From assembly GCA_035291665.1 (NCBI GenBank), contig DATDRP010000003.1, positions 212,549-276,548 of the forward strand: DNA of 64,000 nt. Direction: 5' to 3'. Positions 18,770 to 64,000 of the stretch are shown piece by piece. The notes beneath the pieces are model-generated. The model was given only the letters and a program-made list of their open reading frames with translations. It made no database searches and was not told the DNA's origin. Positions within the stretch are counted from its first letter, which is position 1. Each line of letters opens with the position of its first letter. Source of the DNA: Patescibacteria group bacterium (GTDB lineage Bacteria; Patescibacteriota; Microgenomatia; UBA8517). Position numbers and translations under genes: made by a program.

Positions 18770-18859
18770 TTATTCTTTTCCATAAAATAACCTGCACTGA
18801 GCCCTTCAGTTTCATTCAGGACTGTGCAACTGGTGCTTGCACTGAGCTTGCCGAAGTGC

Positions 18860-18930
18860 TCCTCGGCTAGGATTTGAACCTAGAACCTTCTCGTTAACAG
18901 CGAGCCGCTCTACCGTTGAGCTACCGAGGA
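18860..18930 (-). tRNA. tRNA-Asn (anticodon GTT)
   Basis: Manual fold of the reverse complement: acceptor tcctcgg/ccgagga, D arm gctc-aacggta-gagc, anticodon loop cuGUUaa, T arm ctagg-ttcaaat-cctag. Confidence 0.75.
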
Positions 18931-43025: not shown

Positions 43026-43100
43026 ATGCGTAATCGAAAAACCTGCCTCAACGCGAGTGCAACGACCAGAGCGTCAAACGCACCAGCCGAGTTTGACTCG
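43026..43100. repeat. 75-bp direct repeat, copy 2
   Basis: See copy 1. Abuts the tRNA-Ser 3' end. Confidence 0.8.
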
Positions 43101-43101
43101 G

Positions 43102-43188
43102 CGGTGAGGGAGGGATTCGAACCCTCGATGGCGTTGCCGCCATACACGCTTTCCAAGCGAGCCGATTAAACCGCTCTCGCACCTCACC
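43102..43188 (-). tRNA. tRNA-Ser (anticodon GGA), class II with long variable arm
   Basis: Reverse complement: acceptor ggtgagg/cctcacc, anticodon loop uuGGAaa, variable stem atggcg-gcaa-cgccat, T arm gaggg-ttcgaat-ccctc. 87 nt. Confidence 0.7.
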
Positions 43189-43915: not shown

Positions 43916-44009
43916 ATGTGTATTATATCAGGTTTTGGAAAAATCGTATTTGTAAGAAGCTCAATTCATCACACACAACAAATCCTGGCTCGGAATCGAA
44001 AGAAGAGAG

Positions 44010-44094
44010 CGGAGGTGGTGAGATTCGAACTCACGAGACCCTTGCGAGTCGAGGTTTAGCAAACCTCTGCCATAGGCCACTAGGCGACACCTCC
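44010..44094 (-). tRNA. tRNA-Ser (anticodon GCT)
   Basis: Reverse complement: acceptor ggaggtg/cacctcc, anticodon stem gaggt/acctc with loop uuGCUaa, long variable arm, T arm gtgag-ttcgaat-ctcac. Confidence 0.75.
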
Positions 44095-44765: not shown

Positions 44766-44837
44766 GCCCCTGTAGCTCAACGGATAGAGCAGCAGTTTGC
44801 GGAACTGTAGATATCAGTTCAATTCTGATCAGGGGCA
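44766..44837 (+). tRNA. tRNA-Arg (anticodon read as GCG)
   Basis: Acceptor gcccctg/caggggc, D arm gctc-aacggata-gagc, anticodon stem gcagt/actgt with loop uuGCGga, T arm atcag-ttcaatt-ctgat. Confidence 0.7.
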
Positions 44838-44875
44838 CTTTATTAGAAATTAGTTATTAGTGTTAAGTTAAACAA

Positions 44876-44965
44876 GGAGGTGTGCCAGAGCGGACGATCG
44901 GGCTTGTTTCGAAAACAAGTATCTCATGTTTAATGGGATCAGAGGTTCGAATCCTCTCACCTCCG
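44876..44965 (+). tRNA. tRNA-Ser (anticodon CGA)
   Basis: Acceptor ggaggtg/cacctcc, anticodon stem cttgt/acaag with loop uuCGAaa, long variable arm, T arm agagg-ttcgaat-cctct. Confidence 0.75.
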
Positions 44966-45024
44966 CTCTCTTCGCTCACTTCGGTGTAAGGGTTCGATAT
45001 TGCGAATCAAGGATTAAAACTGTG

Positions 45025-47576: not shown

Positions 47577-47974
47577 GGGGACGACCGGTTTCGACGGGAA
47601 AGCACCTTAAAAAACTGCAAGCCGAGTTTAATTCACACTCGCTAATAATGGATTAACAAATAAACGCTGATAACGAAAGTTACAGTCCAGAAGCAATAGC
47701 TTCAACTTTGCTCGGTACTAACCAAGCCAATTGGGCATTTGCTTAAACACTGGTGTCGTTTGAAAGGTTCTCAATCGTTTCAAAACGGCATAAACCTATT
47801 GAGATAAGCCAACAGCCGTTGACTGCAAGCTGTAGGTCGAAAAATATTCAGTCTTACTTGAAAGAAGGTCGTTAGTAATCTAACTTTCAAGAAAATATAA
47901 AAATACTAACTAAGCTTGTAAGAAAAGTTTTTTATTTACTTTTTCGGACGAGGGTTCGATTCCCTCCGTCTCCA
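47577..47974 (+). ncRNA. ssrA: tmRNA (ssrA)
   Basis: 5' GGGGACGACCGGTTTCGACGGG. 3' GGACGAGGGTTCGATTCCCTCCGTCTCCA paired with the 5' end. Internal tag ORF ...ANWAFA-stop. Confidence 0.9.
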
Positions 47975-47983
47975 CATATAAAA

Positions 47984-50503: not shown

Positions 50504-50728
50504 TCACATTATTATCGAATAAATAAAAACCAAAATTGCTGTAAACAAATGAAGGGCAGCAGCAATTCTTAATGGTTTCTCAAAATTCACTTCAAGAGTT
50601 TGAGTCATAATATTAACCTGCTTCAAAACCACAAATGCAAAAACAACATACAAAGCCATACCAACAATAGCTGCAATTTTCAGGATAATAAATCCTGTTG
50701 ATTCAAGCTGCGGTATTTCAAAGGGCAT
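50504..50728 (-). CDS. small two-TM membrane protein
   Basis: 74 aa. Start overlaps the upstream gene stop. Confidence 0.3.
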   Translation of the reverse strand: MPFEIPQLESTGFIILKIAAIVGMALYVVFAFVVLKQVNIMTQTLEVNFEKPLRIAAALHLFTAILVFIYSIIM

Positions 50729-51664: not shown

Positions 51665-53458
51665 TTACAGTTTCTCTAAATTATAAAGCGAGCTTTTTAA
51701 CCCGACATAACCGGGCGCCCGAAGATTGAAAGCTTTTTTAAATTCATCTCCGGGAATATTAATGCTTCCTTTGTTTGTCGAAAATATTACAGTTTGAGTT
51801 GATCCTGAATTGGAATAAACAACACTTATAGATGAAGCACTAGTAAATCCGCCGATCCCGGCAAGATCACTCAAGGAGTAGGGATTACCACCCCAGCAGC
51901 TGGTATCAACCGGACTTATCCTTGAAACATCTCCCCCGCCTTTATTTAAGACACTCCAGGCGTTTATTATGTCTGCAGTTTGTTCACTCGTCAGCCACGG
52001 GTTTACCTTACCGCAAGTCGCGCCTGAACGGGATTTGTACCAGCCTTTGTAAAACCAAGGGGATCCGGAAATTTTTTCATAGGCTGAATTTGGCCAATTA
52101 CCGTCTTTGGCATCTTTTATCCCTGTCCATCCCCATTGGGATATGGTAAATCCTCCCGCAGTAGATGCGTAATAAGTCTTTGCCGGAGTTCCCCCGACAG
52201 TCAAAACCCAACCTCGGGTATCGCGTACTGCCTGTGCCCATTTACCCGATTTTAGCTGTGGCTTATACACCTGACAGCTTTCGGTTGTACAAATACTTCC
52301 GGCTCCGTTATTGGTGTACGAAAGTGCGTAAGTCCTGGCGGCAACCGCCTGCGCTTTGAGAGCTTCGTACCCGCCATTATCCCCCCACTTTTCGGGGACC
52401 TCATAAATTCCAAGGAGGTAATTTTCCTCAAAAGAAACCCTTCCGATGCCGGTCACTCCGATGGTTGCCGGAACGGGATAATTTTTATTAAGTGTTGCAC
52501 CCTGAAAATAATCCGATAAAATTTGTTCTGCCGATTGACCTGATTTTGATCTTCCGTACGCGCCGTATTGGCTCATGCCTGTTCTATGGGGCGCACCAAA
52601 TGAAAACGCAGCAAACGCCGGGCGGTATCCGGGGTCGCAAAAATTTGCAGAGCCGGGCGGACCGGAACAGGGTTCAAGCGTTTCAGGAGTATCTCCGACC
52701 GAGGTTTGGAAGCCTCCCTCCTTTTGGGCAATCAGGGCTTGCTGTTTGGAAGACAGAGTAGCCAAATAGCTTTCTGTTTTTTCAACCTCCACTGATAGGA
52801 ATGCTGCTCTTTCTGAAACGTTTTTCTTAACAGATGCAAGCAATGTCTGGTTTTTTTCCAGACTTTCCTTATCGCTTTTCAGTTTTACCAGATCTGCCGC
52901 ATATTTCTCCATCGTTTTTATGTCCTCACCCGTTGCTTTTTTACGAAGATTAATTTCTCTGAAGGCGTTGCTGGCATTGGCGGCAGTAATAAAAGCCTGA
53001 AATTCATCGTAAAAGCGGATAAAAATATAGTGATTTTTTGTTTTTTCTTCGAATATTCTTTGCGCGTACGCAAGATCGCCTTCCCGCTCTTTAATGTTTT
53101 GTTCTGTAACTTTCAACTGCGCTGAAAGAGCTGCAATCTTTTTTTCTAAAGAAGATATCTGGATTCTTAAATCAGCCAACTCTTGTTTGTTATATTCGTG
53201 GGCGGGTTTAAGAGCGTCGATCTCTTTCTGAAGTTTGTCCAAACAAAAATCAATATCACCTATACTTGGAGCATCGCAGTTCGGTTCGGCAGTCACATAC
53301 CGAAGCTTTGCTCCCAGAAGGAAAAAGGGGGAGATAATAATTAAGAAGGTTACCAGCAAAAATAATTTACTCCCAAGTGGAGGTTGGGGCTTTCCGGAAA
53401 TCATAGTAAAATAATATTTATCCATGAAATACTTCATTAAAATTATATCAGGAGTCAT
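51665..53458 (-). CDS. SpoIID/LytB-domain protein with N-terminal signal anchor and coiled coil
   Basis: GMSQYGAYG motif plus Trp/Gly-rich C-terminal half. The start may be the internal Met near 53404, as it overlaps the divergent gene. Confidence 0.55.
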   Translation of the reverse strand: MTPDIILMKYFMDKYYFTMISGKPQPPLGSKLFLLVTFLIIISPFFLLGAKLRYVTAEPNCDAPSIGDIDFCLDKLQKEIDALKPAHEYNKQELADLRIQISSLEKKIAALSAQLKVTEQNIKEREGDLAYAQRIFEEKTKNHYIFIRFYDEFQAFITAANASNAFREINLRKKATGEDIKTMEKYAADLVKLKSDKESLEKNQTLLASVKKNVSERAAFLSVEVEKTESYLATLSSKQQALIAQKEGGFQTSVGDTPETLEPCSGPPGSANFCDPGYRPAFAAFSFGAPHRTGMSQYGAYGRSKSGQSAEQILSDYFQGATLNKNYPVPATIGVTGIGRVSFEENYLLGIYEVPEKWGDNGGYEALKAQAVAARTYALSYTNNGAGSICTTESCQVYKPQLKSGKWAQAVRDTRGWVLTVGGTPAKTYYASTAGGFTISQWGWTGIKDAKDGNWPNSAYEKISGSPWFYKGWYKSRSGATCGKVNPWLTSEQTADIINAWSVLNKGGGDVSRISPVDTSCWGGNPYSLSDLAGIGGFTSASSISVVYSNSGSTQTVIFSTNKGSINIPGDEFKKAFNLRAPGYVGLKSSLYNLEKL

Positions 53459-55100
53459 AAAGACAAAGCTATTTAAAATTTTACTTCCTATCTTTATAAG
53501 CGGATTTTATATTTTCCTGAACCCGAAGATTCTTGATGCACAAACCAGCTTTTCCTACACATCGTTTACCCACAGGTCTCAGTTGAATACCGATCAAATA
53601 AACGCCTGTGTTACAAATGACCATGCCTATTTTACTGCACAGGGAATTTCCAGCGGGAGGTATATTTACGTACTTTTCCGACAAACCGGAGGAGATTATT
53701 ATCCAATCCTTCCTGATTTTACTATTAACACTAACGGTTCCGATTATACTTGGGACCAAAGATTTGATTTTATAACCGCAGGTTTTCCTCAGGGGTTATG
53801 CGCAACGGCTTCTGCATACGATGTCCCGACCGGCACCTACCAAGTACGGCTATATGACTATACAAGCTGGTTCAATTTCATAAATAGCGGCACTCCGACA
53901 ACCAATTATGGCGTAAGCAGTTCCTACGGTGGAATCTTGTACATTTCAACTCCCACCCTCCCAACCGCAGTACCGACAGCGGGTCCGACCGCCACACCGC
54001 CTCCATCATGTTCTTTGGCATATTGCTCCCAAGACACAGCAAGATGTACAGAGTCAATATGTGTAGGGTGTCCTTTTTGCGGATGTCCTGATAATCTGTT
54101 ATCGTCCAATGAAGAAAAATTTGCTTTCTGTTCGAGTGCATCAGTGGTTCCCCCAAGCGGACCGGGAAATACCAGTTTCACCTTTGAAGGAAGAAATTGT
54201 GTAAATATCGGAAGCGCTTCATATTACCGGATGAGTATCTATGATGGTAACGGTTTAATAAACTCTTCAACCCCCCAGATTTATGCCGTTGATGCCGATT
54301 CTGACGGGCAAATGGATGATGTTCGGGCTTCAATAGCTCTTGCAACTTTTCAGAATCCGGGAACTTTCTATGCAAAATTGTTTGCTCCCTACACAGACAT
54401 TTCCGGAAATCCGTTTGTTGGTGCCCAGTGTGCTCCTTTCGGGGTAACCAGCCCTGTTGCGTCCTCCACCTGCTGTAACATTGATCCTTCATCTAATCCT
54501 GCAGCCTTTTGCGGTCCTCCTTTGGGATGTACCAATGTCGGATCAAACGATCCCAGTCTTTGTCCCGCATCCTGTCCGCCGGAACGTTTTTACTGCACAA
54601 GCGAAGTCTGGGTTTGTATGAATCGTAACGCCTGTAGCGGATTTTTTACAGGTAATGCGGGAACATGTCGTTTTGCAAGATGTCCGGAAAATATGGTTTT
54701 TGATGGGTTTAACCCTCCGACGAATAACGATTGTCCGGTATTGTTTGCCTGCTGTACTGATCCGCAACCTGCAATAACAAGAGCGCTTCTTAATACCGGC
54801 TGTACGACAACAGACGGTCAGCAAGGTATAAATACGGCTGTTGGTTGTATCGCAACCACAACTAATATTCAATTCTTAACTTTTGTACTTCCTTGGGCAT
54901 TGGGTGTTGCAGGCGGAACTTCATTCATTTTATTTATTGTATCAGCAGTTATGTTTTCAACGTCCGCGGGAGATCCCCAAAGAATTAAATCCGCAAAACA
55001 ACTCTTCTGGTCAGCGTTAACCGGACTTATAATGATCATTTTTTCCGTTTATTTACTTAATTTGATAGGTCTTCAGATTCTCCGACTCCCGGGAATATAA
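53424..55100 (+). CDS. large Cys-rich secreted protein with C-terminal TrbC/VirB2-type (T4SS) pilin domain
   Basis: Signal peptide, about 40 Cys, YQVRLY module. C-terminus ...FVLPWALGVAGGTSFILFIV-SAGDPQRIKSAK-...TM2 is homologous to the small pilins downstream. Confidence 0.6.
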   Translation: MKYFIKIISGVIKTKLFKILLPIFISGFYIFLNPKILDAQTSFSYTSFTHRSQLNTDQINACVTNDHAYFTAQGISSGRYIYVLFRQTGGDYYPILPDFTINTNGSDYTWDQRFDFITAGFPQGLCATASAYDVPTGTYQVRLYDYTSWFNFINSGTPTTNYGVSSSYGGILYISTPTLPTAVPTAGPTATPPPSCSLAYCSQDTARCTESICVGCPFCGCPDNLLSSNEEKFAFCSSASVVPPSGPGNTSFTFEGRNCVNIGSASYYRMSIYDGNGLINSSTPQIYAVDADSDGQMDDVRASIALATFQNPGTFYAKLFAPYTDISGNPFVGAQCAPFGVTSPVASSTCCNIDPSSNPAAFCGPPLGCTNVGSNDPSLCPASCPPERFYCTSEVWVCMNRNACSGFFTGNAGTCRFARCPENMVFDGFNPPTNNDCPVLFACCTDPQPAITRALLNTGCTTTDGQQGINTAVGCIATTTNIQFLTFVLPWALGVAGGTSFILFIVSAVMFSTSAGDPQRIKSAKQLFWSALTGLIMIIFSVYLLNLIGLQILRLPGI

Positions 55101-55148
55101 TTGGCCTGAAATATTCTTGGATGCTGATATAAGATATAATAAATTGAC

Positions 55149-56588
55149 ATGAAAGCGATTGTAAAAAATCTTCTATTTTTAGCTTTGACAATATTTTTTT
55201 TTATCGCTTCGGATGAACTTACAATTGCGCAGGAATACGGGACTTACAGTTGTACCTATATTCCGACAAGTCCTTCCTGTTCCGGCAACCCAGCCAGTTG
55301 TACAACCTATGGCTGCCGATTCCCAACGGATGACAGTACGGCTGGTTGCGGCCAATTTAACGGCGATGCCGTGCAGTGTTCTTCATCCACTTTCGCCTGC
55401 GACTTCTGTCCGATTATGACTCATTCCCCGATGCAAATAAGTGATTGTTCCCAGGGAGTAAGGTTTCAGGCATTGCTTCTTAATGACACCATGTCCTATA
55501 CCATTAGGCTTTACAATCTTGGCAACGGCCGTTTATACGATGTACCCCAAGCGTCAATTGTGTCTCAATCTTCATATGACCAAACTTTATATTTTGATGT
55601 AACCGATATTAATGACGAAAACCTTGTGCTTTGTAATAATTCTCAAACCAGTGCAAGAATCCCGTCGGGTTTCTACCAAGTTAGGTTGTATACACAGGGG
55701 ACTTCTTATTACCGCGTCAGTAATGCCGGAAGTCTTTACTTTGTCCAACCTGTAATCACACCCCAACCCGGGACCTGTTCCTGTAACCAAAACGGTACAG
55801 CGTGTACGGTAAATTCAAGCCCCACCTGCAACTCAGGCTACTTACCCTCCTGCTTCTATGGGGGAACATTTTGCGGATGTAATTGTGTTACCCCCACTCC
55901 GGGGGGATCAGGGCTTCCCTGTCCTGTAACAACGCCCGGCATCCAATGCTGCGCTTCTTCATCCGCCTGTTCCTCTCCCGCCGGTACGGTGTTAACTCAG
56001 TATTCATGTGCGACCGGTGTCTGCTGCCAGGGTGCATGTACGGCAGTTGCTCCGACTGTCGCCATTCCTCCCGAATTCGCCGCATGCGATACGACCTGTT
56101 CAGCAAATCCGGAACCATACACGATAGGAAATTGTTCCCGAACCGGAGGTAATCCGGACACTTCAAAATGCCAGCGTCCGGTTTCAAATCCGGGATATGA
56201 CTGTAATATCAACGGGGTAACCTATGACTGCTTTTGCTGTTCGGAGCTTCTTTCGTCATCTACTGCAGCACTCACCCCAAGACCATCTCTTCCTGCCACT
56301 TGTGCTAACAACGGAATAGATACTGCAATCGGATGTTTGCCTGTGGGGAACCGCCAGCTATTCTTGCAATTTATTCTTCGCTGGGCACTGGGAATCTCGG
56401 GTGGAACTGCTCTTGTCATGATTGCCTATTCCGGAATTTTAATCATGACAGCACAGGGCGATAAGCAAAGACTTCAAACCGGCAAGGAATTTTTGACAGC
56501 ATCGGTGGCAGGCATAATGATGATTATTTTTTCGGCGTATTTATTGCAGCTTATCGGTGTAACCATATTCCGGCTGCCAGGAATATAA
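55149..56588 (+). CDS. large Cys-rich secreted protein with C-terminal TrbC/VirB2-type pilin domain (paralog)
   Basis: Same architecture. C-terminal 85 aa nearly collinear with the previous gene (…ILRWALGISGGTALVMIAYSGILIMTAQGDKQR…RLPGI). Confidence 0.6.
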   Translation: MKAIVKNLLFLALTIFFFIASDELTIAQEYGTYSCTYIPTSPSCSGNPASCTTYGCRFPTDDSTAGCGQFNGDAVQCSSSTFACDFCPIMTHSPMQISDCSQGVRFQALLLNDTMSYTIRLYNLGNGRLYDVPQASIVSQSSYDQTLYFDVTDINDENLVLCNNSQTSARIPSGFYQVRLYTQGTSYYRVSNAGSLYFVQPVITPQPGTCSCNQNGTACTVNSSPTCNSGYLPSCFYGGTFCGCNCVTPTPGGSGLPCPVTTPGIQCCASSSACSSPAGTVLTQYSCATGVCCQGACTAVAPTVAIPPEFAACDTTCSANPEPYTIGNCSRTGGNPDTSKCQRPVSNPGYDCNINGVTYDCFCCSELLSSSTAALTPRPSLPATCANNGIDTAIGCLPVGNRQLFLQFILRWALGISGGTALVMIAYSGILIMTAQGDKQRLQTGKEFLTASVAGIMMIIFSAYLLQLIGVTIFRLPGI

Positions 56589-56632
56589 GTAAGCCGTTTA
56601 TATCCTGCCATAAAAAATATAGAATAATAACA

Positions 56633-57211
56633 ATGAAGAAAAGTCTATTTACACTCTTACTCATCGCCTTCGTGGGTTACTTCATGATCCTTAAACCTGA
56701 TATTGCCAGCGCTCAGGGGTACGGTACCTGCACCTGGAACGGTCCGGAATTCGGCGGCTACTGTCAAGTGGGCTCGGTAAATTGCGATCCTAACTGTTTC
56801 GCACCGGCAAGTGCATGCGTCGGAATCCAGTTCAGTTCCTGTCCCGGCGCAACATTCGTCTGCGGCAACTGCTTTGTCCCACCAACAAGCGCACCGCCGC
56901 CTCCCAGCAACCTGGACTTTAATAGCTTGTATAGCGCAATTGGTTTTCGATTCGGCGGTTCAACGGTTGGCAACATTATCAGTGTTGCCAACACATATCT
57001 CTTTCCGATTGCTGGCTTAATACTTCTTTTATATCTGATATACGGAGGGTTAAATTTAATGCTGTCTGGCGGAGATCCGAAAAAAGCGGCTGCAGCAAAA
57101 TCAATTATCTCAACTGCAATTATGGGAATAATTATTATCTTTGCAGCTTACTGGATTGTTCAGTTGGTTGGAAGAATACTTGGTCTTACACAAATTTCAC
57201 TTACTTTTTAA
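56633..57211 (+). CDS. Cys-containing TrbC/VirB2-type pilin-like protein
   Basis: Signal peptide, 12 Cys in a short N-domain, then TM1-GGLNLMLSGGDPKKAAAAKS-TM2. Confidence 0.6.
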   Translation: MKKSLFTLLLIAFVGYFMILKPDIASAQGYGTCTWNGPEFGGYCQVGSVNCDPNCFAPASACVGIQFSSCPGATFVCGNCFVPPTSAPPPPSNLDFNSLYSAIGFRFGGSTVGNIISVANTYLFPIAGLILLLYLIYGGLNLMLSGGDPKKAAAAKSIISTAIMGIIIIFAAYWIVQLVGRILGLTQISLTF

Positions 57212-57214
57212 ATT

Positions 57215-57541
57215 ATGAATAAACTTGCACTTGTTGATATCGGAAGCGTTTTTGGAAGCCCGTTCGGAAGAGACAGGGGTTTTGCCGATTTTGTGTCGGT
57301 TGTTCTTTTTAATGTTATTGCATTGGCATCCGTACTTTTATTGATATTAATAATTTACGGTTCAATTACAATCATAGCCGGAGCCGGGAGCGGCAATAAA
57401 GAAGATGTTGGTAAAGGAAGGAAAGCTGTCACTTCAGCGCTCGTCGGCTTTTTGATTATTTTCGTTTCTTATTGGATAATATATTTATTGCAAAGAATTT
57501 TGGGTTTTAATATATTGCAGCCTTTTCAACCGCTACCATGA
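57215..57541 (+). CDS. TrbC/VirB2-type (T4SS) pilin-like protein
   Basis: TM1-loop(AGAGSGNKEDVGKGRKA)-TM2. 4-nt gap from the previous gene. Confidence 0.6.
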   Translation: MNKLALVDIGSVFGSPFGRDRGFADFVSVVLFNVIALASVLLLILIIYGSITIIAGAGSGNKEDVGKGRKAVTSALVGFLIIFVSYWIIYLLQRILGFNILQPFQPLP

Positions 57542-57894
57542 ATAACCTGCTCGCTCAGTTCGGAAGAGTTAACCCCCCGCCGGGAGTAAGCTCTTGGATT
57601 GCAAATGCCGGTGGAAATTCGGAAACGGGGTTGCAGCGTTTTGTTTCAGCAATTATCCAAACATTAATTGCCGGCGCCGGAATATACGCTCTTATCAATC
57701 TGGTAATGGCCGGATATTCTTTTATGTCTGCCGGCGGTAATCCGGAAAAAATTGCACAATCCTGGGGAAAAATCTGGCAGACACTCCTTGGACTTCTGGT
57801 TGCTGCAGGGGCGTTTGTTCTTGCCGGAGTATTCGGCCAGATTATATTCGGTAATCCCCGCGCGCTAATACAAATACAAATTTTTACACCGTAA
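57538..57894 (+). CDS. TrbC/VirB2-type pilin-like protein
   Basis: TM1-SAGGNPEKIAQSW-TM2. Overlaps the previous stop. Confidence 0.6.
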   Translation: MNNLLAQFGRVNPPPGVSSWIANAGGNSETGLQRFVSAIIQTLIAGAGIYALINLVMAGYSFMSAGGNPEKIAQSWGKIWQTLLGLLVAAGAFVLAGVFGQIIFGNPRALIQIQIFTP

Positions 57895-58260
57895 ATGAAA
57901 AACATACTTGCTCAAAATCCGCGAAATATTGGAGGAGAGATAAACGGTCTGGGTTCATACGGAACACCGGGGAACTCATCACCCGGACTGTTTGCAACCA
58001 TTCTCTCCCGAATAATCGGGCTTTTAACGATCGTTGCCGGAATATTTTTTATTTTTCTTCTTATTTCGGGGGGCATCGCCTGGATGTCGGCAGGAGGAGA
58101 TAAGGGAAAACTGGCGAGTGCCAGAACCAGCATGGTTAACGGAGCCGTTGGACTTGCTGTTGTTGTTGCCGGAATCTTTATCGTCCAAATCATTGGAAAC
58201 ATTATCGGAGTCGGAAATTTTCTTGATCCGGTTAACTTAATACAAAGGATAACCCCCTAA
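57895..58260 (+). CDS. TrbC/VirB2-type pilin-like protein
   Basis: TM1-GGIAWMSAGGDKGKLASAR-TM2. Confidence 0.6.
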   Translation: MKNILAQNPRNIGGEINGLGSYGTPGNSSPGLFATILSRIIGLLTIVAGIFFIFLLISGGIAWMSAGGDKGKLASARTSMVNGAVGLAVVVAGIFIVQIIGNIIGVGNFLDPVNLIQRITP

Positions 58261-58303
58261 CCCCACCCCTTGACAAGAATTTTGCATGGCCGGATAATAT
58301 TAA

Positions 58304-58642
58304 TTGGATATGAGAAATTTATTGGCTCAAGGTTATGTGGTTAATTTGGATCCTCCCAACCAATTTCAAAATCTTGAAAATATTGATTTTGGATCACTCG
58401 TAACCATCGCGATTGCGTTTGTCATGATCGTTGCCGCCATTGCATTCTTCTTTATCCTGATCTTGGGTGGAATCAAATGGATCACCTCCGGTGGGGATAA
58501 AGGTAGAACTGAAGCTGCCCGCAGTCAGATTACAGCTGCACTTATTGGTCTTGTAATCGTATTTGCTTCCTGGGCAATCCTAAATATTGTGGAAAACTTC
58601 TTCCAGGTTAATTTGAGAAGCTTTAATCTCAACCTGTTTTAA
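58304..58642 (+). CDS. TrbC/VirB2-type pilin-like protein
   Basis: TM1-GGIKWITSGGDKGRTEAARSQ-TM2. Confidence 0.65.
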   Translation: MDMRNLLAQGYVVNLDPPNQFQNLENIDFGSLVTIAIAFVMIVAAIAFFFILILGGIKWITSGGDKGRTEAARSQITAALIGLVIVFASWAILNIVENFFQVNLRSFNLNLF

Positions 58643-58714
58643 ATCTTAAAAAGCATAAATTACTTTGAGATTTTTAGAACTTATTTCTAAAAACCGAAAG
58701 GGGGTGGAAAAAAG

Positions 58715-59041
58715 ATGAATCTATTAGCACAAGACACAGTCGTACTTAATGCTCCGGCAGGTTTTGAAAACCTTGAAAACATTTCGTTCGGAGGATTAGT
58801 GGGACTTGCTATTTCGTTCGTTCTGATTATTGCCGCAATCGCTTTCTTCTTTATGTTGGTCCTAGGTGGAATCAAGTGGATTACCTCAGGAGGAGACAAG
58901 GGAAAGACAGAAGCAGCCAGAAACCAGATTACAGCCGGATTGGTTGGTTTGGTTATCGTCTTTGCTGCGTGGGCAATATTGACTCTAATTGAAAGCTTCT
59001 TTGGTGTAAGTTTGAGGACATTTACAATTCCTGGAACTTAA
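58715..59041 (+). CDS. TrbC/VirB2-type pilin-like protein (close paralog of 58304)
   Basis: TM1-GGIKWITSGGDKGKTEAARNQ-TM2. Confidence 0.65.
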   Translation: MNLLAQDTVVLNAPAGFENLENISFGGLVGLAISFVLIIAAIAFFFMLVLGGIKWITSGGDKGKTEAARNQITAGLVGLVIVFAAWAILTLIESFFGVSLRTFTIPGT

Positions 59042-59067
59042 AGAAACATGCAAGGAAGAATCAATTA

Positions 59068-59097
59068 AAAAGCGGTCTTTTGTAAGGCCGCTTTTTA
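59068..59097 (+). terminator. rho-independent terminator
   Basis: AAGCGGTC-ttttgtaa-GGCCGCTT followed by TTTTTATT. Confidence 0.55.
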
Positions 59098-59198
59098 TTG
59101 TCTTGAGCATTGATAAACAAATCTTCTTAAACTAGAATTTATATGGTAGTAAAAAGAGATAAGGGCAAAGTTAAAAGTATTTAAAAAAAGGAAAATTT

Positions 59199-59528
59199 AT
59201 GAAACTCGCACAACTTATTAATCCAGTTCCCGGTGTCCATACCACAGATAATGGAATTGCAACAATAAAGGGTTTTGAATGGATTTTTAACAACATTGTC
59301 TTTTCCATCATCGCATTTGCCGGGATCGCTCTTTTTGTCATGCTTCTTGTGGGAGGATTTAAGTATCTGACGTCCGCAGGAAACCCTGAAAGCGTAGCTG
59401 CAGCTCAAAAAACTTTAACTTATGCACTAATCGGAATGGTCCTTGTTGCATTATCGTTTTTGATATTATTTCTTATTCAGACCTTTACGGGTGCGAATGT
59501 CACCGTATTCAACGTGACGGTTCCTTGA
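59199..59528 (+). CDS. TrbC/VirB2-type pilin-like protein
   Basis: TM1-GGFKYLTSAGNPESVAAAQK-TM2. Confidence 0.6.
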   Translation: MKLAQLINPVPGVHTTDNGIATIKGFEWIFNNIVFSIIAFAGIALFVMLLVGGFKYLTSAGNPESVAAAQKTLTYALIGMVLVALSFLILFLIQTFTGANVTVFNVTVP

Positions 59529-59613: not shown

Positions 59614-62600
59614 ATGACAAAAAAATTGTTCGCAATTGTCTTTTCATTCTTATTTTTAGCAAAGAGCTATTCAATAATTTCGGCGCAAACTCCAACAACT
59701 CTTGATTGTACAAACGGATTCCAAACGCTTTTCCCCGATCAAACAAGCGCAATAACCTACAAAGAAGTGACCCTCACTTCCCCCAGAAGAATGGTTGTCC
59801 ATATTGTCAAAGCCAACATCAATAGCGGGGATCTTGATTTTACAACAACGCCGCGAAAATATTTGGGATCAACTACTTCGACTTTTTTAACCGGCGTCGA
59901 CGCAGCGGTTGCCATAAACGGAAGCGGTTTTTTTGAGTCCGACCCGGAAGATCCGACCGGATTTAATTCATATCAGGGAGACCGATACTCATCCGATTCG
60001 GGATTGGGAATTTTGGGTTTTTTCATCTCCGAAGACAACGTTCCATCATTCACCTATTCAATCCCATCACCCTTGTGGGATGCATTAAGCGGCGTCAACC
60101 TTCTTGTGAGCAACAATAATATTTATGATCGATTAATAAGCTGCCCCCTTCAAAGCTGCACCCCTTCCGGCTGTGACACATCATACTGCACAGTTGCTCC
60201 CAGAACCGCACTTGGATTAAACGATGATAATATAATAATTATCGTCGTAGACGGCCGGTTGCCGGGTTACAGTGAAGGAGCAAGACTTGATGAGCTGGCG
60301 ACGATAATGCGAAGGTGTGAAGCGACAAATGCCGTAAACATGGATGGCGGAGGTTCTTCAACACTAGCCGCATCGGGCTTAAATTATACAGGTAATCAGA
60401 TTTTAAACCGCCCGAGCGACGGAACGGAAAGAACCGTTTCGAACCATTTCGGAATCTGTATTGGATCGTGTTCTGATATCAGCAGCAACCCGATTCTTAT
60501 ACTTCCTGAAGGGGAAGCCAGACCAAGATATCAGGCTGGTGCGGAGTATCCATTCCCATGTAACAGAAGCGCCCCTGATAATAGCATTCCTTTCTCCGAT
60601 GATGAATTTCATTCCTTAAGACCCTATCAGGCAAGTCCCTGCAATCCAAATAAGGAAGATCTTGCGCTTTTTTGCGGAAATGACTTGTTTGTCGGAGACA
60701 ATGTCACAATCATAAAAACCAATTATGAACCCCCCACTATTCCTGCTTACTCTGTAAACGGATCCCCCGCTTCACCCAATGTACCTTCCGATCCTTACAG
60801 CAATGCATGCTTTATCTGCGGAGATAGCGGCTATTGTCAAAGAACGCTGAATGTATATTGCGACAGCTCAGCCGATCAGTGCGACCCCAATATAACAAAC
60901 TCCTGCAGCCGGTGCATTAATAACGGCGACGGAACGGAAAGCTGCTCATTTGTTATTTCTTCATCAAAGCAAATAGCGGTGGATCTCTTTGGAGCGGAAC
61001 TGCCGATTATGGGTTACACCGAGCCCTCAGTGGGAAACACTAATGGACCGAAAGTGATAAACAGCCAAAACAAAACCGACGAAACCATGGATCACGCAAC
61101 AAAGATGAATGAATATGTCAGCTGGTACTTGAACGGTGTTATCGGAAGAGCCGAATATGATTTTCCCGACCCTACCCCCGACTGCGTCGGGGAATCATCA
61201 GACAAACCCGGCTGGTGTGAACCGTTGGTCCTCGGAAGTAATTACTGTATGACAAAAAGTTCAGTTCCTCTGGTTGGAGCAACCCCCAACTTCGATCATA
61301 TTGCCGATGGAAAGGATACCTGTTCTTCGGGAGAATATTGCTGCGTCAGCCAGTCAACTTCTGACAGTGGCAAAATTCCTGACCGGGAAATAACCAGTAA
61401 TTATTCCGGTCCGGTAAAAAAACTTCTTCCTTTTACTATCCAAAACATAGAAAGGATCGCTGAGATCAATGACGGTTTTGCTTCAAAAAATCTTGATACT
61501 CGTATCCGACATGATCAGTACGTAGGCTGCCACTTCGGTGGAATGTTTAATGTCAAAATTCCCTTTACAAGTACGTATGTTGATTTTTCGATTCTGGCAA
61601 TTCCAACACAATGTTACGGAGGCGGTTTTGTGGATTATATCAGAGACGAACTGCACCTGAGTGAATTCGCACCAAACAATCTTCCACCCGTTGAAGAAGA
61701 TTACCAGGGAAGGCCGTTTATTGAATTCCAAAAGGATTACAGGGAGTGGAAGGGCGACTGGTGTTATCCTTTGACGATCAATATTCCGATATTCGGTACT
61801 TTTCAATTCCTTTTGTGCTTTAACAATCCATTCAGTCCGGATATCTTTTCAAACCTTTTCAGCTTTACTCCGTTCACGTCAACCGAAGACCGACTGGGGG
61901 ATGTCAGGGTCAGGTCGGTTGGAATAGTTCCGATCGGATCCAACCTGCGGTTGATTTCCTACAGACTCAGGAACGTTAAAAATGCGGACCTCTTCTTTGC
62001 CCACATGGAAGAAGACACTCAGCTTTCTGCAAATCTTCAGGATACATTCATTTATAAAGACGCCGATCGCGATGATATCGGTTCGTCCTCATTTGTACCC
62101 TATGAACCATATTGCAGCTATCGCCGGGTCATTACTAATCCCGGAGACGATCTTTTTGCCGGAGAAATCTCAGCCGATGTTGACTATACGGTTGCTCTGA
62201 CCTGTCCCTTTTTTATCTGGGGAGATGGACAGAATGCTGATTACGGCAACCTTTGCCGGAACCTGAATAATGCGGAGTGTGTAAGAGCAATTCCCGCGGA
62301 TGCCACTTGGTGTGATGTAAGTTATGGGCAATTCGACTGCATCGGAGGACAAATTTGCGGTGTGAATTGCCAATCGGTGGTTGGAGTAGACGAATCAAAT
62401 TGCGAGTCCGCAGCAGCACTGGATTTTCCCAGTTTACCGTATGTTAATTCGGAGAACCCGGGTTGTGTACCGGAAAGCTTTGATGGTATATGCGAGGAGG
62501 TCAGCGATTATCCCAGTAGATCTCCTTATAGTATTCCCTACCCATACTGCAGAAGCGGATTTAAGTGTGTTTTCAATAAAAATACCTGTACGAGAAGCGA

Positions 62601-63546
62601 CCAGCAACCAACGACTACTCAAGCCTGTTATGGGCAAACACTGGTTGGCATAAGACTTCAGACCCGTACCCCTCTTGCGGATAAAGTCTGGGCAAGACTC
62701 GTTGCAGGATCAACCAGCGTTTTCAGGAAAATGTTTCCCAAAGTCGGAGAAGAAGGTGCCCCCATTGAAGGCATAGAAGATATCCCAACAGCAACAAACG
62801 TTACATATCAAAATCTTTCCGGAGGTCTTTTGTTTGCCGGTAACCCAGGAGATCAAAGACCGGGAAGCGCTGCCCAGCTTTACTTCCCCCATATCGGAGC
62901 TCTCCGGGAATATTTTCTCGGCGGGATCCAAACAATGCTGCGTCCTTATGAATACAAAGACACATTGATAAGCTCAACCTTGGAAGGAAGAACTCCAACT
63001 TATGTTTCCTCTGACTGCGGAGGCATTTCCGACGATCAGGTACCAGAACAATATTTGGGGGCGCTTAAGGAAGAATTCATCGCCTACTGTAATAAATTCG
63101 CCGGGGGAAACTTGGGTGAAGCCTGCTATAACGATATGGTCGTCAAATCCATAGCAGCCAATGTCAATCCGGCTTTCACCATGTCTATTTGGATAAACGA
63201 GTCTGCCTGCAGCAACTATACCTTCGGGGATATCGTCAATGATTTCGGAACGATGCTTGCACCAAGTAAAAATTACGAAGAGCAGCTTGATGCTTTCCTT
63301 GATAAAAGTACTGTTTACTGGACACACACTTCAAACTGCTACCAAAATTCATGGTTTTTGAGTTACATGCACGCATTTTTGTCATTCTTCAAAGCAGGAG
63401 ACACGGACGGAGACTGCCGGCCGAATAGTACCGCCGATGCGGAAAGATATTACAATGCAATAAAAGGAGTTTGGTATTCACTTATAGATATGGTAGACCC
63501 TACCTGTTATTTGCCGGATAATCCTGCGGATATGAGTTGTCCGTAG
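59614..63546 (+). CDS. 1310-aa Cys-rich secreted protein with N-terminal phosphodiester glycosidase (NAGPA/DUF2233-like) domain
   Basis: Signal peptide. AVAINGSGFF and NAVNMDGGGSSTL motifs characteristic of the phosphodiester glycosidase family. More than 60 Cys in the remainder. Confidence 0.6.
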   Translation: MTKKLFAIVFSFLFLAKSYSIISAQTPTTLDCTNGFQTLFPDQTSAITYKEVTLTSPRRMVVHIVKANINSGDLDFTTTPRKYLGSTTSTFLTGVDAAVAINGSGFFESDPEDPTGFNSYQGDRYSSDSGLGILGFFISEDNVPSFTYSIPSPLWDALSGVNLLVSNNNIYDRLISCPLQSCTPSGCDTSYCTVAPRTALGLNDDNIIIIVVDGRLPGYSEGARLDELATIMRRCEATNAVNMDGGGSSTLAASGLNYTGNQILNRPSDGTERTVSNHFGICIGSCSDISSNPILILPEGEARPRYQAGAEYPFPCNRSAPDNSIPFSDDEFHSLRPYQASPCNPNKEDLALFCGNDLFVGDNVTIIKTNYEPPTIPAYSVNGSPASPNVPSDPYSNACFICGDSGYCQRTLNVYCDSSADQCDPNITNSCSRCINNGDGTESCSFVISSSKQIAVDLFGAELPIMGYTEPSVGNTNGPKVINSQNKTDETMDHATKMNEYVSWYLNGVIGRAEYDFPDPTPDCVGESSDKPGWCEPLVLGSNYCMTKSSVPLVGATPNFDHIADGKDTCSSGEYCCVSQSTSDSGKIPDREITSNYSGPVKKLLPFTIQNIERIAEINDGFASKNLDTRIRHDQYVGCHFGGMFNVKIPFTSTYVDFSILAIPTQCYGGGFVDYIRDELHLSEFAPNNLPPVEEDYQGRPFIEFQKDYREWKGDWCYPLTINIPIFGTFQFLLCFNNPFSPDIFSNLFSFTPFTSTEDRLGDVRVRSVGIVPIGSNLRLISYRLRNVKNADLFFAHMEEDTQLSANLQDTFIYKDADRDDIGSSSFVPYEPYCSYRRVITNPGDDLFAGEISADVDYTVALTCPFFIWGDGQNADYGNLCRNLNNAECVRAIPADATWCDVSYGQFDCIGGQICGVNCQSVVGVDESNCESAAALDFPSLPYVNSENPGCVPESFDGICEEVSDYPSRSPYSIPYPYCRSGFKCVFNKNTCTRSDQQPTTTQACYGQTLVGIRLQTRTPLADKVWARLVAGSTSVFRKMFPKVGEEGAPIEGIEDIPTATNVTYQNLSGGLLFAGNPGDQRPGSAAQLYFPHIGALREYFLGGIQTMLRPYEYKDTLISSTLEGRTPTYVSSDCGGISDDQVPEQYLGALKEEFIAYCNKFAGGNLGEACYNDMVVKSIAANVNPAFTMSIWINESACSNYTFGDIVNDFGTMLAPSKNYEEQLDAFLDKSTVYWTHTSNCYQNSWFLSYMHAFLSFFKAGDTDGDCRPNSTADAERYYNAIKGVWYSLIDMVDPTCYLPDNPADMSCP

Positions 63547-63611: not shown

Positions 63612-64000
63612 ATGATGTTAAGAAAAATAATTGCTTCATTATTATTAATTGTATTCTTGCTGACCCAAACTCTGTCATACGCCTCCGCCCAGGAAACTTA
63701 TCCCTGGTATTCGCAAAGCTATAAACAATGGTTTGTAAAAGTTTATGATCAGGACGTGTCTCCTCCGCAGGAAATCTTCGGTGAAAGGTATACTGCCGCC
63801 CAGGTTTCGTGGGTAATTTATTCGCTTATCGCTTTTGTTCAGCAGGGTGTATACAGGCTGATGGCGTGTATTTGGCAAGGGGGGGCTGGTCAAATCGGAT
63901 CCTGCTTATATCAAAATCTTCCTTTTCCGCCTGTAAGCGAGAATCTTGAAACTCCACAAAAAAGCGTTCTGGCAACACTATTCCCCGAAGAAAGACAGCT
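63612..64000 (+). CDS. secreted hypothetical protein (3' partial, runs off window)
   Basis: ATG at 63612 followed by a signal peptide (IIASLLLIVFLLTQTLSYASAQ). No stop before the window end. Confidence 0.35.
   Translation, partial: MMLRKIIASLLLIVFLLTQTLSYASAQETYPWYSQSYKQWFVKVYDQDVSPPQEIFGERYTAAQVSWVIYSLIAFVQQGVYRLMACIWQGGAGQIGSCLYQNLPFPPVSENLETPQKSVLATLFPEERQ

Follow-up and report, generated by a model that had tools for sequence, protein, structure and literature searches.

A T4SS-linked exoprotein family with exchangeable, predicted glycan-cleaving domains in Woesebacteria-type Patescibacteria

Results

In a stretch of 64,000 nucleotides from a Patescibacteria group bacterium of the Microgenomatia (assembly GCA_035291665.1, contig DATDRP010000003.1, positions 212,549 to 276,548 of the forward strand; here referred to as the window), the gene at positions 59614 to 63546 encodes an exported protein of 1,310 residues at the end of an array of VirB2-like pilin genes, within a type IV secretion system (T4SS) locus. 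The main interest of this protein is that it belongs to a core family that is fixed to the T4SS locus and carries exchangeable, predicted glycan-cleaving heads, of which the phosphodiester glycosidase (NAGPA) head found here is a minority variant. Our best explanation, to which we give an even chance, is that the protein is a Sec-exported, disulfide-rich exoprotein of three parts, a predicted envelope-glycan-breaching enzyme linked to the T4SS locus, with its VirB2-like pilins, of an ultra-small bacterium of the Woesebacteria type among the Patescibacteria. This explanation starts from observed domain identities, conservation of motifs and cysteines, synteny, and modular domain swapping. The gene is a single uninterrupted open reading frame (ORF) on the plus strand, with 1,310 codons followed by a stop codon (59614..63546), as determined by ORF analysis of the window. 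An identical public protein, named [quoted passage not shown] by NCBI, is present on contigs as long as 606 kb.

A conserved core of about 830 residues

When 120 homologues were compared with the query protein by BLAST, three layers were apparent. About 20 full-length relatives (34 to 48% identity) contain the NAGPA domain; more than 100 homologues of 730 to 1,000 residues lack it and consist of their own signal peptide followed by the region equivalent to query residues ~300 to ~1120; and residues 1126 to 1310 are common to only a subset of homologues. The conserved family core, delimited by homologue comparison, profiles, and a structural model, spans residues ~300 to 1125 (60511..62988, plus strand). 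It contains eleven strongly conserved motifs, including PEFHSLRPYQASPC, AELPIMG(N/Y)TE, NEYVSWYLNG, RHDQ, and (F/S)STEDR, as well as the further motifs FFAHMEE, NPGDDLFAGEI, TPLAD..W.RLVAG, and LYFPHIGG..EYFL.GIQ..LRP. Among the invariant core residues are R336, C343, C354, H633, H797, C834, G844, and D845. Optional inserts interrupt the core at residues ~365 to 434, 520 to 596, and 866 to 1003; the last of these is a variable cysteine-rich insert (62209..62622, plus strand; 12 cysteines) that many homologues lack or have in a shorter form.

The query matches the core-family profile over positions 29 to 763 of 768, and an exhaustive HMMER search with this family yielded 866 clusters at 50% identity, 749 of them at an E value of ≤1e-10. 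Named family records come from Woesebacteria, Microgenomates, or Patescibacteria. Pfam contains no model for the core, and the core family is not described in a survey of Patescibacteria T4SS (PMC12102498). An AlphaFold2 model of the core was predicted with confidence (mean local confidence score [pLDDT] of 85; predicted template modeling score [pTM] of 0.80), and a Foldseek search with it found no relative in the PDB (best E value of 1.6, probability of ≤0.13) or in BFVD (best E value of 1.2, probability of ≤0.35, the match at 0.35 covering 49 columns). The core is apparently an undescribed family of orphan fold that is locked to the T4SS locus. At the Foldseek sensitivity used, it was not recognizable as an adhesin, beta-helix, peptidase, or phage-tail fold. 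Searches of PDB sequences with the core profile likewise gave no meaningful match; hits to Vav and 2qp2 at E values of 0.1 to 0.2 in the core and C-terminal searches were dismissed as noise. We also observed that H633 (in RHDQ), H797-x-x-E800 at a helix start (in FFAHMEE), and D845 (in NPGDD) form a possible metal or catalytic site (~61510 to 62150), in which H797-x-x-E800 could bind a metal together with H633 or D845. No metallohydrolase fold or profile supporting such a site in the core was found.

The core family is fixed to a pilin-bearing T4SS locus

To describe the genomic setting of the family, we scanned one genome per GTDB species, which gave 74 family loci, and all informative titles among them name Woesebacteria, Microgenomates, or Patescibacteria. 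Synteny was counted over the loci with a script based on hidden Markov models (HMMs), the upstream test being limited to loci with at least 6 kb of upstream sequence (n = 61). At least three, and usually eight, pilin ORFs lie upstream of the family gene in 56 of 61 loci; the nearest pilin is less than 400 bp away in 55 of 61; and the ATPase VirB4 is encoded 5 to 9.5 kb downstream in 45 of 79. The core-family gene is single-copy and syntenic inside the T4SS locus. Many of the family-bearing metagenome-assembled genomes (MAGs) in GTDB (L009 to L012, L015, L016, and others, from binchicken co-assemblies) are titled "uncultured Gammaproteobacteria bacterium," which is almost certainly a placeholder or wrong taxonomy.

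Gene order was then compared gene by gene in four loci, that of the query and those of three distant homologues, namely a member lacking NAGPA, an SLT_3-bearing member, and another NAGPA-bearing member. All share the order SpoIID (minus strand), pilin array, core-family gene, ORF of ~570 residues, ORF of ~900 residues (minus strand), 23S_rRNA_IVP, PrgI-like/CarboxypepD_reg, TraC-like, and VirB4, except that one of the four gave no SpoIID match. The first-pass annotation, a reading of the window's sequence that preceded this analysis, had placed the gene at the end of a "pilin locus." The linkage to the array is real and strongly conserved, and the locus is a VirB2-like T4SS locus with a PrgI-like gene and VirB4 rather than one for type IV pili. 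Arrays of 2 to 11 VirB2 genes are typical of Microgenomatia (PMC12102498). Canonical monoderm T4SS differ in lacking such a VirB2-like pilin array (PMC12102498), which the query gene adjoins.

Glycan-active heads are exchanged between members

The core is combined with different partners from one species to the next. It occurs alone or with an unrecognized C terminus in 33 of 79 loci, with a C-terminal domain of the query type in 26, and with SLT_3 in 12, while 8 loci are NAGPA bearing, so that NAGPA is found in ~10% of members and in two architectures. Among 28 long members, Pfam domains comprised SLT_3 in six, a GH5 cellulase in two (best E value of 5.7e-6), and a weak BNR_4 in one; a Pfam scan of seven members carrying a long extension at the N terminus gave one weak GDSL/SGNH match only. 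The variable appendages of the family are nearly all glycan-active modules.

In three cases (L029, L049, and P0028), the family protein is divided between two genes. The first gene encodes a signal peptide and the N-terminal core module and ends after FFAHMQE...LQ, near query residue 820, and the second encodes its own signal peptide, NAGPA, the C-terminal core module, and SLT_3 (L029:9659-13046; L049:1080-4345). An additional break in L049 may be a frameshift. The split genes indicate that the core has at least two separable modules, residues ~300 to 820 and 830 to 1125, and since NAGPA has been joined to the family in two different ways, its association is argued to be functional and not accidental.

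These features invite comparison with the wall hydrolases of other T4SS. As with VirB1, PrgK of pCF10, TraG of pIP501, and TcpG, the query gene lies inside a T4SS locus with VirB4 and a PrgI-like gene, and its product is multidomain, with a lysozyme- or lytic transglycosylase-like module that is probable in the query and demonstrable as SLT_3 in homologues. It differs in that it has a cleavable signal peptide in place of a membrane anchor, gives no Pfam match to SLT, CHAP, NlpC/P60, or M23 domains, and has an extra NAGPA head and a huge core without recognized fold that dominates the protein. PrgK and TraG are membrane anchored.

We weighed whether the protein is a genuine counterpart of VirB1 whose target is the wall of the producing cell, removing polymers and peptidoglycan locally for assembly of the pilus or T4SS through that cell's own monoderm envelope. 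We regard this as unlikely. Its single-copy, syntenic gene in the T4SS locus is what such a role would predict, and three of the four annotated loci have a SpoIID-like wall-remodeling gene beside the array (in the window, a SpoIID-domain gene at 51665-53458 on the minus strand, divergent to the pilin array). Monoderm T4SS loci need a dedicated multidomain wall hydrolase, for which PrgK and TraG of pIP501 have been cited (PMC12102498). However, the absence of a membrane anchor sets the query apart from both, and the variation of heads between species (NAGPA, SLT_3, the query-type C-terminal domain ctA, GH5, or none) is more easily explained by differing host envelopes.

The N-terminal NAGPA domain

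The first-pass annotation had assigned an N-terminal phosphodiester glycosidase domain of the uncovering-enzyme type and had proposed an HMM search for it. That search gave a match to Pfam NAGPA (PF09992) at an E value of 1.1e-26 (94.5 bits; cutoff of 25) over residues 97 to 281 (59902..60456, plus strand) and profile positions 3 to 168 of 169, confirming the domain, and the domain fold probably spans residues ~30 to 290. The match is far above chance level, and the outcome that the first-pass annotation had named as refuting its assignment, a lack of any significant match to phosphodiester glycosidase models, did not occur. This identity is already given by the automatic NCBI annotation. The signature strings that had been pointed out are present as AVAINGSGF (residues 98 to 106) and VNMDGGGSS (residues 241 to 249). 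Sequence matches in the PDB, found by phmmer, are the bacterial DUF2233 protein 3ohg and the vertebrate NAGPA structures 6pky and 6pku (E value of ~6e-8), and the meaningful PDB sequence relatives of the whole protein are restricted to this region. A single weak PHROGs match is also located in the NAGPA region.

Human NAGPA has an invariant DGGGS loop in which D286 is essential, and it contacts the phosphate through R316, T260, and G289 and GlcNAc (N-acetylglucosamine) through E226, T227, and G287 (PMC13474241). In the query, the DGGGS loop occupies residues 244 to 248 (60343..60357, plus strand), where D244, aligned with the LDGGGS of 6pky and 3ohg, is the counterpart of D286. R273 follows D244 by 29 residues, compared with 30 between D286 and R316 of the human enzyme, is aligned with an arginine of 3ohg, and is kept in the subfamily. 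An alignment of 18 NAGPA-subfamily members showed INGSGF, PRT, and ERxVxNH to be common to them and DGGGS to be intact in 15, with degenerate loops in a few homologues (DGGNS in P0008 and DGGSS in P0018 and P0020). A Cx4Cx4Cx4C loop (C177, C182, C187, and C192; 60142..60189, plus strand) also lies within the domain.

The query thus resembles the "uncovering enzyme"/DUF2233 family (PF09992; 6pky, 6pku, and 3ohg) in its full-model match, NG-GFF region, and DGGGS loop, and, as in human NAGPA, a cysteine-rich extracellular region follows the catalytic domain (PMC13474241). The human protein continues into an EGF-like stalk and a transmembrane helix, whereas the query continues into an 830-residue core specific to the candidate phyla radiation (CPR) and a lysozyme-like domain. 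The query also lacks a furin-type propeptide, and its substrate cannot be the mannose-6-phosphate tag.

Outside the core family, the nearest NAGPA relatives are stand-alone secreted proteins of ~290 residues with 33 to 38% identity that, where named, belong to Anaerolineales/Chloroflexota, whereas the query's domain is embedded in 1,310 residues. These relatives suggest that the NAGPA module was probably recruited from a simple secreted enzyme. They would also suit a free secreted enzyme that scavenges nutrients or processes the cell's own exopolysaccharide or capsule, its linkage to the T4SS being one of genomic neighborhood only, and some NAGPA proteins are indeed labeled "exopolysaccharide biosynthesis protein" in databases. 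We consider such a role very unlikely, given that in 55 of 61 species-level genomes the core-family gene comes directly after the pilin array, with VirB4 further downstream, that most members lack NAGPA, and that the family is absent from plasmid and phage collections, where tblastn found no match. In the collections searched, the gene is therefore not of mobile-element or phage type.

A probable lysozyme-like domain at the C terminus

Residues 1126 to 1310 (62989..63543, plus strand) form a separate C-terminal domain, here called ctA, that was defined by alignments, a model, and Foldseek. It has its own signature, WxxESxASNY...QDFG, in which W1193, E1196, S1200, D1210, and Q1224 are invariant, together with conserved cysteines and a conserved ending, ...PxDxSCP. 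The model is helical (pLDDT of 87; pTM of 0.87), and E1196, the candidate catalytic acid (codon at 63199..63201, plus strand), closes the helix at model positions 61 to 72, with a beta-hairpin (positions 82 to 90) bearing the invariant D1210 coming next. In a Foldseek search of the PDB, the top four matches were all goose-type lysozymes (probability of 0.57 to 0.89; template modeling [TM] score of 0.36 to 0.46) and stood clearly apart from the next-ranked nuclear-receptor noise. An hhalign comparison with goose lysozyme placed E1196 on the catalytic Glu73, DFGTM on GFGLM, and ES on RES.

Other family members have a Pfam SLT_3 "lysozyme like domain" at the same position, directly after LYFPHIGG...LRPKGFGE. 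The likeness of the query domain to goose-type lysozymes (glycoside hydrolase family 23 [GH23]) and to SLT_3 (PF18896) thus extends to its size of ~185 residues, a Glu at a helix end followed by a beta-hairpin and an Asp, and the aligned ES and FG.M motifs, along with the position shared with SLT_3. It differs in its own WxxESxASNY...QDFG and PTDxSCP signature and in having no significant profile match to SLT_3 or to any PDB chain. SLT_3 itself was tried and rejected as an identity for the domain, since hhalign with untrimmed and trimmed alignments in local, permissive, and global settings gave nothing significant. Profile searches of the domain against PDB sequences returned no lysozyme. A domain-only homologue search found eight short proteins, most on contigs of less than 2 kb, that have no Pfam domain and offer no bridge to annotated families; in the homologue searches made here, the domain turned up only in members or fragments of the core family. 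On the basis of the model and the alignments, we judge that the domain is probably a lysozyme-like glycosidase or lytic transglycosylase.

The two heads could also serve binding and not catalysis. As an adhesin or a pilus-associated host recognition factor, the protein would bind the host surface through its core and cysteine-rich inserts, with lectin-like NAGPA and lysozyme-like modules. It would then resemble TraN, the mating-pair stabilization protein of F-type conjugation systems, by functional analogy only, both being large, Sec-exported, cysteine-rich surface components of a conjugation-type machine. TraN is a diderm outer membrane protein without enzymatic heads, and its variable regions are thought to contact the partner cell. 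A large, secreted, disulfide-rich protein with variable inserts at the end of a pilin array would fit such a role, as would the degenerate DGGGS loops of P0008, P0018, and P0020. We nevertheless find this quite unlikely: DGGGS is intact in the query, the Glu/Asp pattern of the C-terminal domain is invariant among members at ~25 to 40% identity, as is typical of active sites, and no Pfam TraN or adhesin domain was matched at an E value of ≤1.

Export and cysteine content

Residues 1 to 24, MTKKLFAIVFSFLFLAKSYSIISA followed by Q, were recognized from a hydropathy scan and the sequence as a Sec-type signal peptide (59614..59685, plus strand), with the cleavage site presumed from the A-x-A-like ISA|Q. 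This is the sole hydrophobic segment of the protein in the hydropathy scan, and no lipobox cysteine, LPXTG motif, or C-terminal anchor was found in its 1,310 residues. The protein contains 52 cysteines, an even number that amounts to 3.97% of its residues, and 44 of them (4.3%) lie in residues 291 to 1310. Other ORFs of at least 150 residues in the window average 1.14% cysteine, a mean that includes three richer neighbors at 5.0, 7.5, and 4.2%; without these three pilin-fusion proteins, the mean is ~0.7% by arithmetic on the same figures, so that the enrichment is 3.5- to 6-fold. Nearly all homologues aligned at the column also have a cysteine at 34 of the 36 core cysteines, the exceptions being C431 and C992. 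This near-invariance supports structural disulfides, and, together with the signal peptide, the lack of any other hydrophobic segment, and the cysteine count, it makes an extracellular, disulfide-stabilized protein plausible.

The first-pass annotation had described everything beyond the NAGPA domain as an extremely cysteine-rich, disulfide-stabilized extracellular scaffold with CxxC and CxxxC clusters. The enrichment holds up, and disulfides and export are plausible predictions, but "extreme" overstates the content, and the clusters are few: we counted only two CxxC (399 and 431), two CxxxC (282 and 915), and one Cx4Cx4Cx4C motif (residues 177 to 192, inside the NAGPA domain). Nor is the remainder a mere scaffold, as it consists of the conserved core of ~830 residues and the probable lysozyme-like domain.

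Neighboring genes and other features of the window

Nine genes with a VirB2-like T4SS_pilin domain (PF18895), identified by Pfam, form the array at 53424..59528 on the plus strand. The first three (53424-55100, 55149-56588, and 56633-57211) encode N-terminally extended proteins of 558, 479, and 192 residues with very cysteine-rich ectodomains and a C-terminal VirB2-like domain, which may be pilus-displayed or minor-pilin-like fusions; large pilin-domain genes likewise open the array in other genomes. They are followed by six small, cysteine-free pilins of 108 to 121 residues (57215-59528). The small pilins start with M-x(1-4)-L-(L)-A-Q (MNLLAQ, MKNILAQ, MNNLLAQ, and MKLAQ), and the signal peptides of the proteins encoded at 53424, 55149, 56633, 59614, and 63612 end in ...A|Q, a pattern that suggests shared processing leaving an N-terminal Gln in the pilins and in the larger exported proteins of the locus.

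Within the array, a terminator-like hairpin with a 14-bp stem and a T tract (59066-59097, plus strand) lies directly 3' of the pilin gene at 58715-59041, whose product is 70% identical to that of the preceding pilin gene (58304-58642), and 5' of the last pilin gene and the 1,310-residue gene. The hairpin may act in attenuation, keeping the major pilin in large excess over the products encoded after it. After it comes a promoter-like TTGATA-17-TAGAAT at 59110-59138; in a promoter scan, counts were not above those of shuffled sequences.

Upstream of the array, the SpoIID-domain gene is conserved in three of the four genomes inspected, and a gene for a small DUF5657 membrane protein (50504-50728, minus strand) is conserved in all four. 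Downstream, a partner ORF begins at 63612 and continues past the window end (63612..64000, plus strand); on the full contig (continuation at L002:13999-15753, plus strand), it encodes 584 residues with a signal peptide and no Pfam match. It is followed there by two large minus-strand ORFs, 23S_rRNA_IVP, PrgI-like/CarboxypepD_reg, TraC-like, and VirB4. A secreted ORF of ~520 to 580 residues follows the core-family gene in all four loci, directly or after an ORF of 150 to 190 residues, with one or two large minus-strand ORFs (~770 to 970 residues) behind it, and neither of these two kinds of downstream ORF gave a Pfam match. VirB6 and VirB8 are described as "missing" in Microgenomatia (PMC12102498). 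The downstream ORFs may be further uncharacterized T4SS components. In three of the four genomes (L001/L002:21033-21401, L003, and L004), the gene for 23S_rRNA_IVP (PF05635, a four-helix bundle) immediately precedes the PrgI-like gene.

BLAST revealed no paralogue of the 1,310-residue protein among the neighboring proteins, and an NCBIfam glgD match at an E value of 0.054 was set aside as chance. The window also holds a transfer-messenger RNA (tmRNA) gene (47577-47977, plus strand; tag peptide ADNESYSPEAIASTLLGTNQANWAFA) and five tRNA genes (Asn, three Ser, and Arg; 18858-18930, 43100-43188, 44009-44094, 44766-44838, and 44876-44966), a set that is ordinary chromosomal content and indicates a chromosomal setting.

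Discussion

From the architecture of the family and its place in the genome, we infer an enzymatic activity, a substrate, an attachment to the pilus or T4SS, and a target that belongs to the host and not to the wall of the producing cell. The NAGPA head would hydrolyze sugar-1-phosphate bonds in HexNAc (N-acetylhexosamine)-1-phosphodiester linkages. Linkages of this kind are known from teichoic-acid-type polymers, from the GlcNAc-1-P units that join these to peptidoglycan, and from some capsules. Predicted targets are wall polymers, either teichoic-acid-like or secondary, along with their GlcNAc-1-P linkers to peptidoglycan and phosphodiester-linked capsules. The core of ~830 residues, the invariant element of the family, would dock the protein onto the cell surface or the pilin/T4SS machinery, and the C-terminal lysozyme-like head would cut the glycan backbone of peptidoglycan. 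Together, the exchangeable heads (NAGPA, SLT_3, the lysozyme-like domain, or GH5, depending on the species) would open a passage for the pilus or the T4SS. The envelope opened would most probably be that of a host or partner cell, since the variation of heads between species points to the partner's envelope as the target. The "host-glycan-modifying" role suggested by the first-pass annotation is likewise a prediction.

Several observations weigh against this explanation. The assignment of the C-terminal domain as lysozyme-like (GH23-like) is weak: Foldseek E values for the goose-type lysozymes were 0.13 to 0.5, which puts the fold match below significance; the hhalign comparison with the goose lysozyme sequence had an E value of only 0.017 and a probability of 2.7%; the query has no Pfam SLT match at an E value of ≤1; and hhalign against the family's own SLT_3 domains was not significant (probability of 0.07%). 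In the NAGPA domain, the human GlcNAc-binding residues E226 and T227, as well as T260, are not visibly kept in the available alignment, since in the alignment with 6pky the columns counted as E226/T227 and T260 hold P/S and L, within a poorly aligned cysteine-rich loop. The occurrence of NAGPA in so small a share of members makes it accessory and not the core function of the family. No pilin-binding or wall-binding module is recognizable in the core, which leaves its docking role a conjecture, and synteny with the T4SS locus is linkage only, not physical association.

A more specific proposal is that the core is a new fold and an obligatory extracellular part of the pilin-bearing T4SS of Woesebacteria/Microgenomatia, where it would serve as a chassis for swappable heads matched to the host surface. 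In this lineage, the lysozyme-like head would cut glycan strands, and NAGPA would strip off phosphodiester-linked capsule or wall polymers, GlcNAc-1-P linkage units being one candidate site. We put this forward as a tentative and rather doubtful possibility.

The unusual pilin-bearing T4SS is one of few conserved candidates for the means by which Patescibacteria breach or tap their hosts; T4SS genes of Saccharibacteria have been reported to be essential to epibiotic growth (cited in PMC12102498). In Patescibacteria, canonical VirB1 is mostly unlinked to virB4, with few VirB1 matches near virB4 outside Paceibacteria, and other glycosidases may replace its role (PMC12102498). If the explanation favored here is true, the core family would fill this VirB1 gap for Woesebacteria with exported glycan-cleaving modules that are fixed to the locus and vary between species. 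The family also offers a natural context for identifying the substrate of bacterial NAGPA/DUF2233 enzymes, and its core is a confidently modeled domain set of 830 residues without a Foldseek relative in the PDB or BFVD. Should the core indeed be a chassis for heads matched to the host surface, it would provide the step, long sought, by which episymbiotic Patescibacteria breach the host envelope and, with it, the first physiological role of a bacterial NAGPA-family enzyme.

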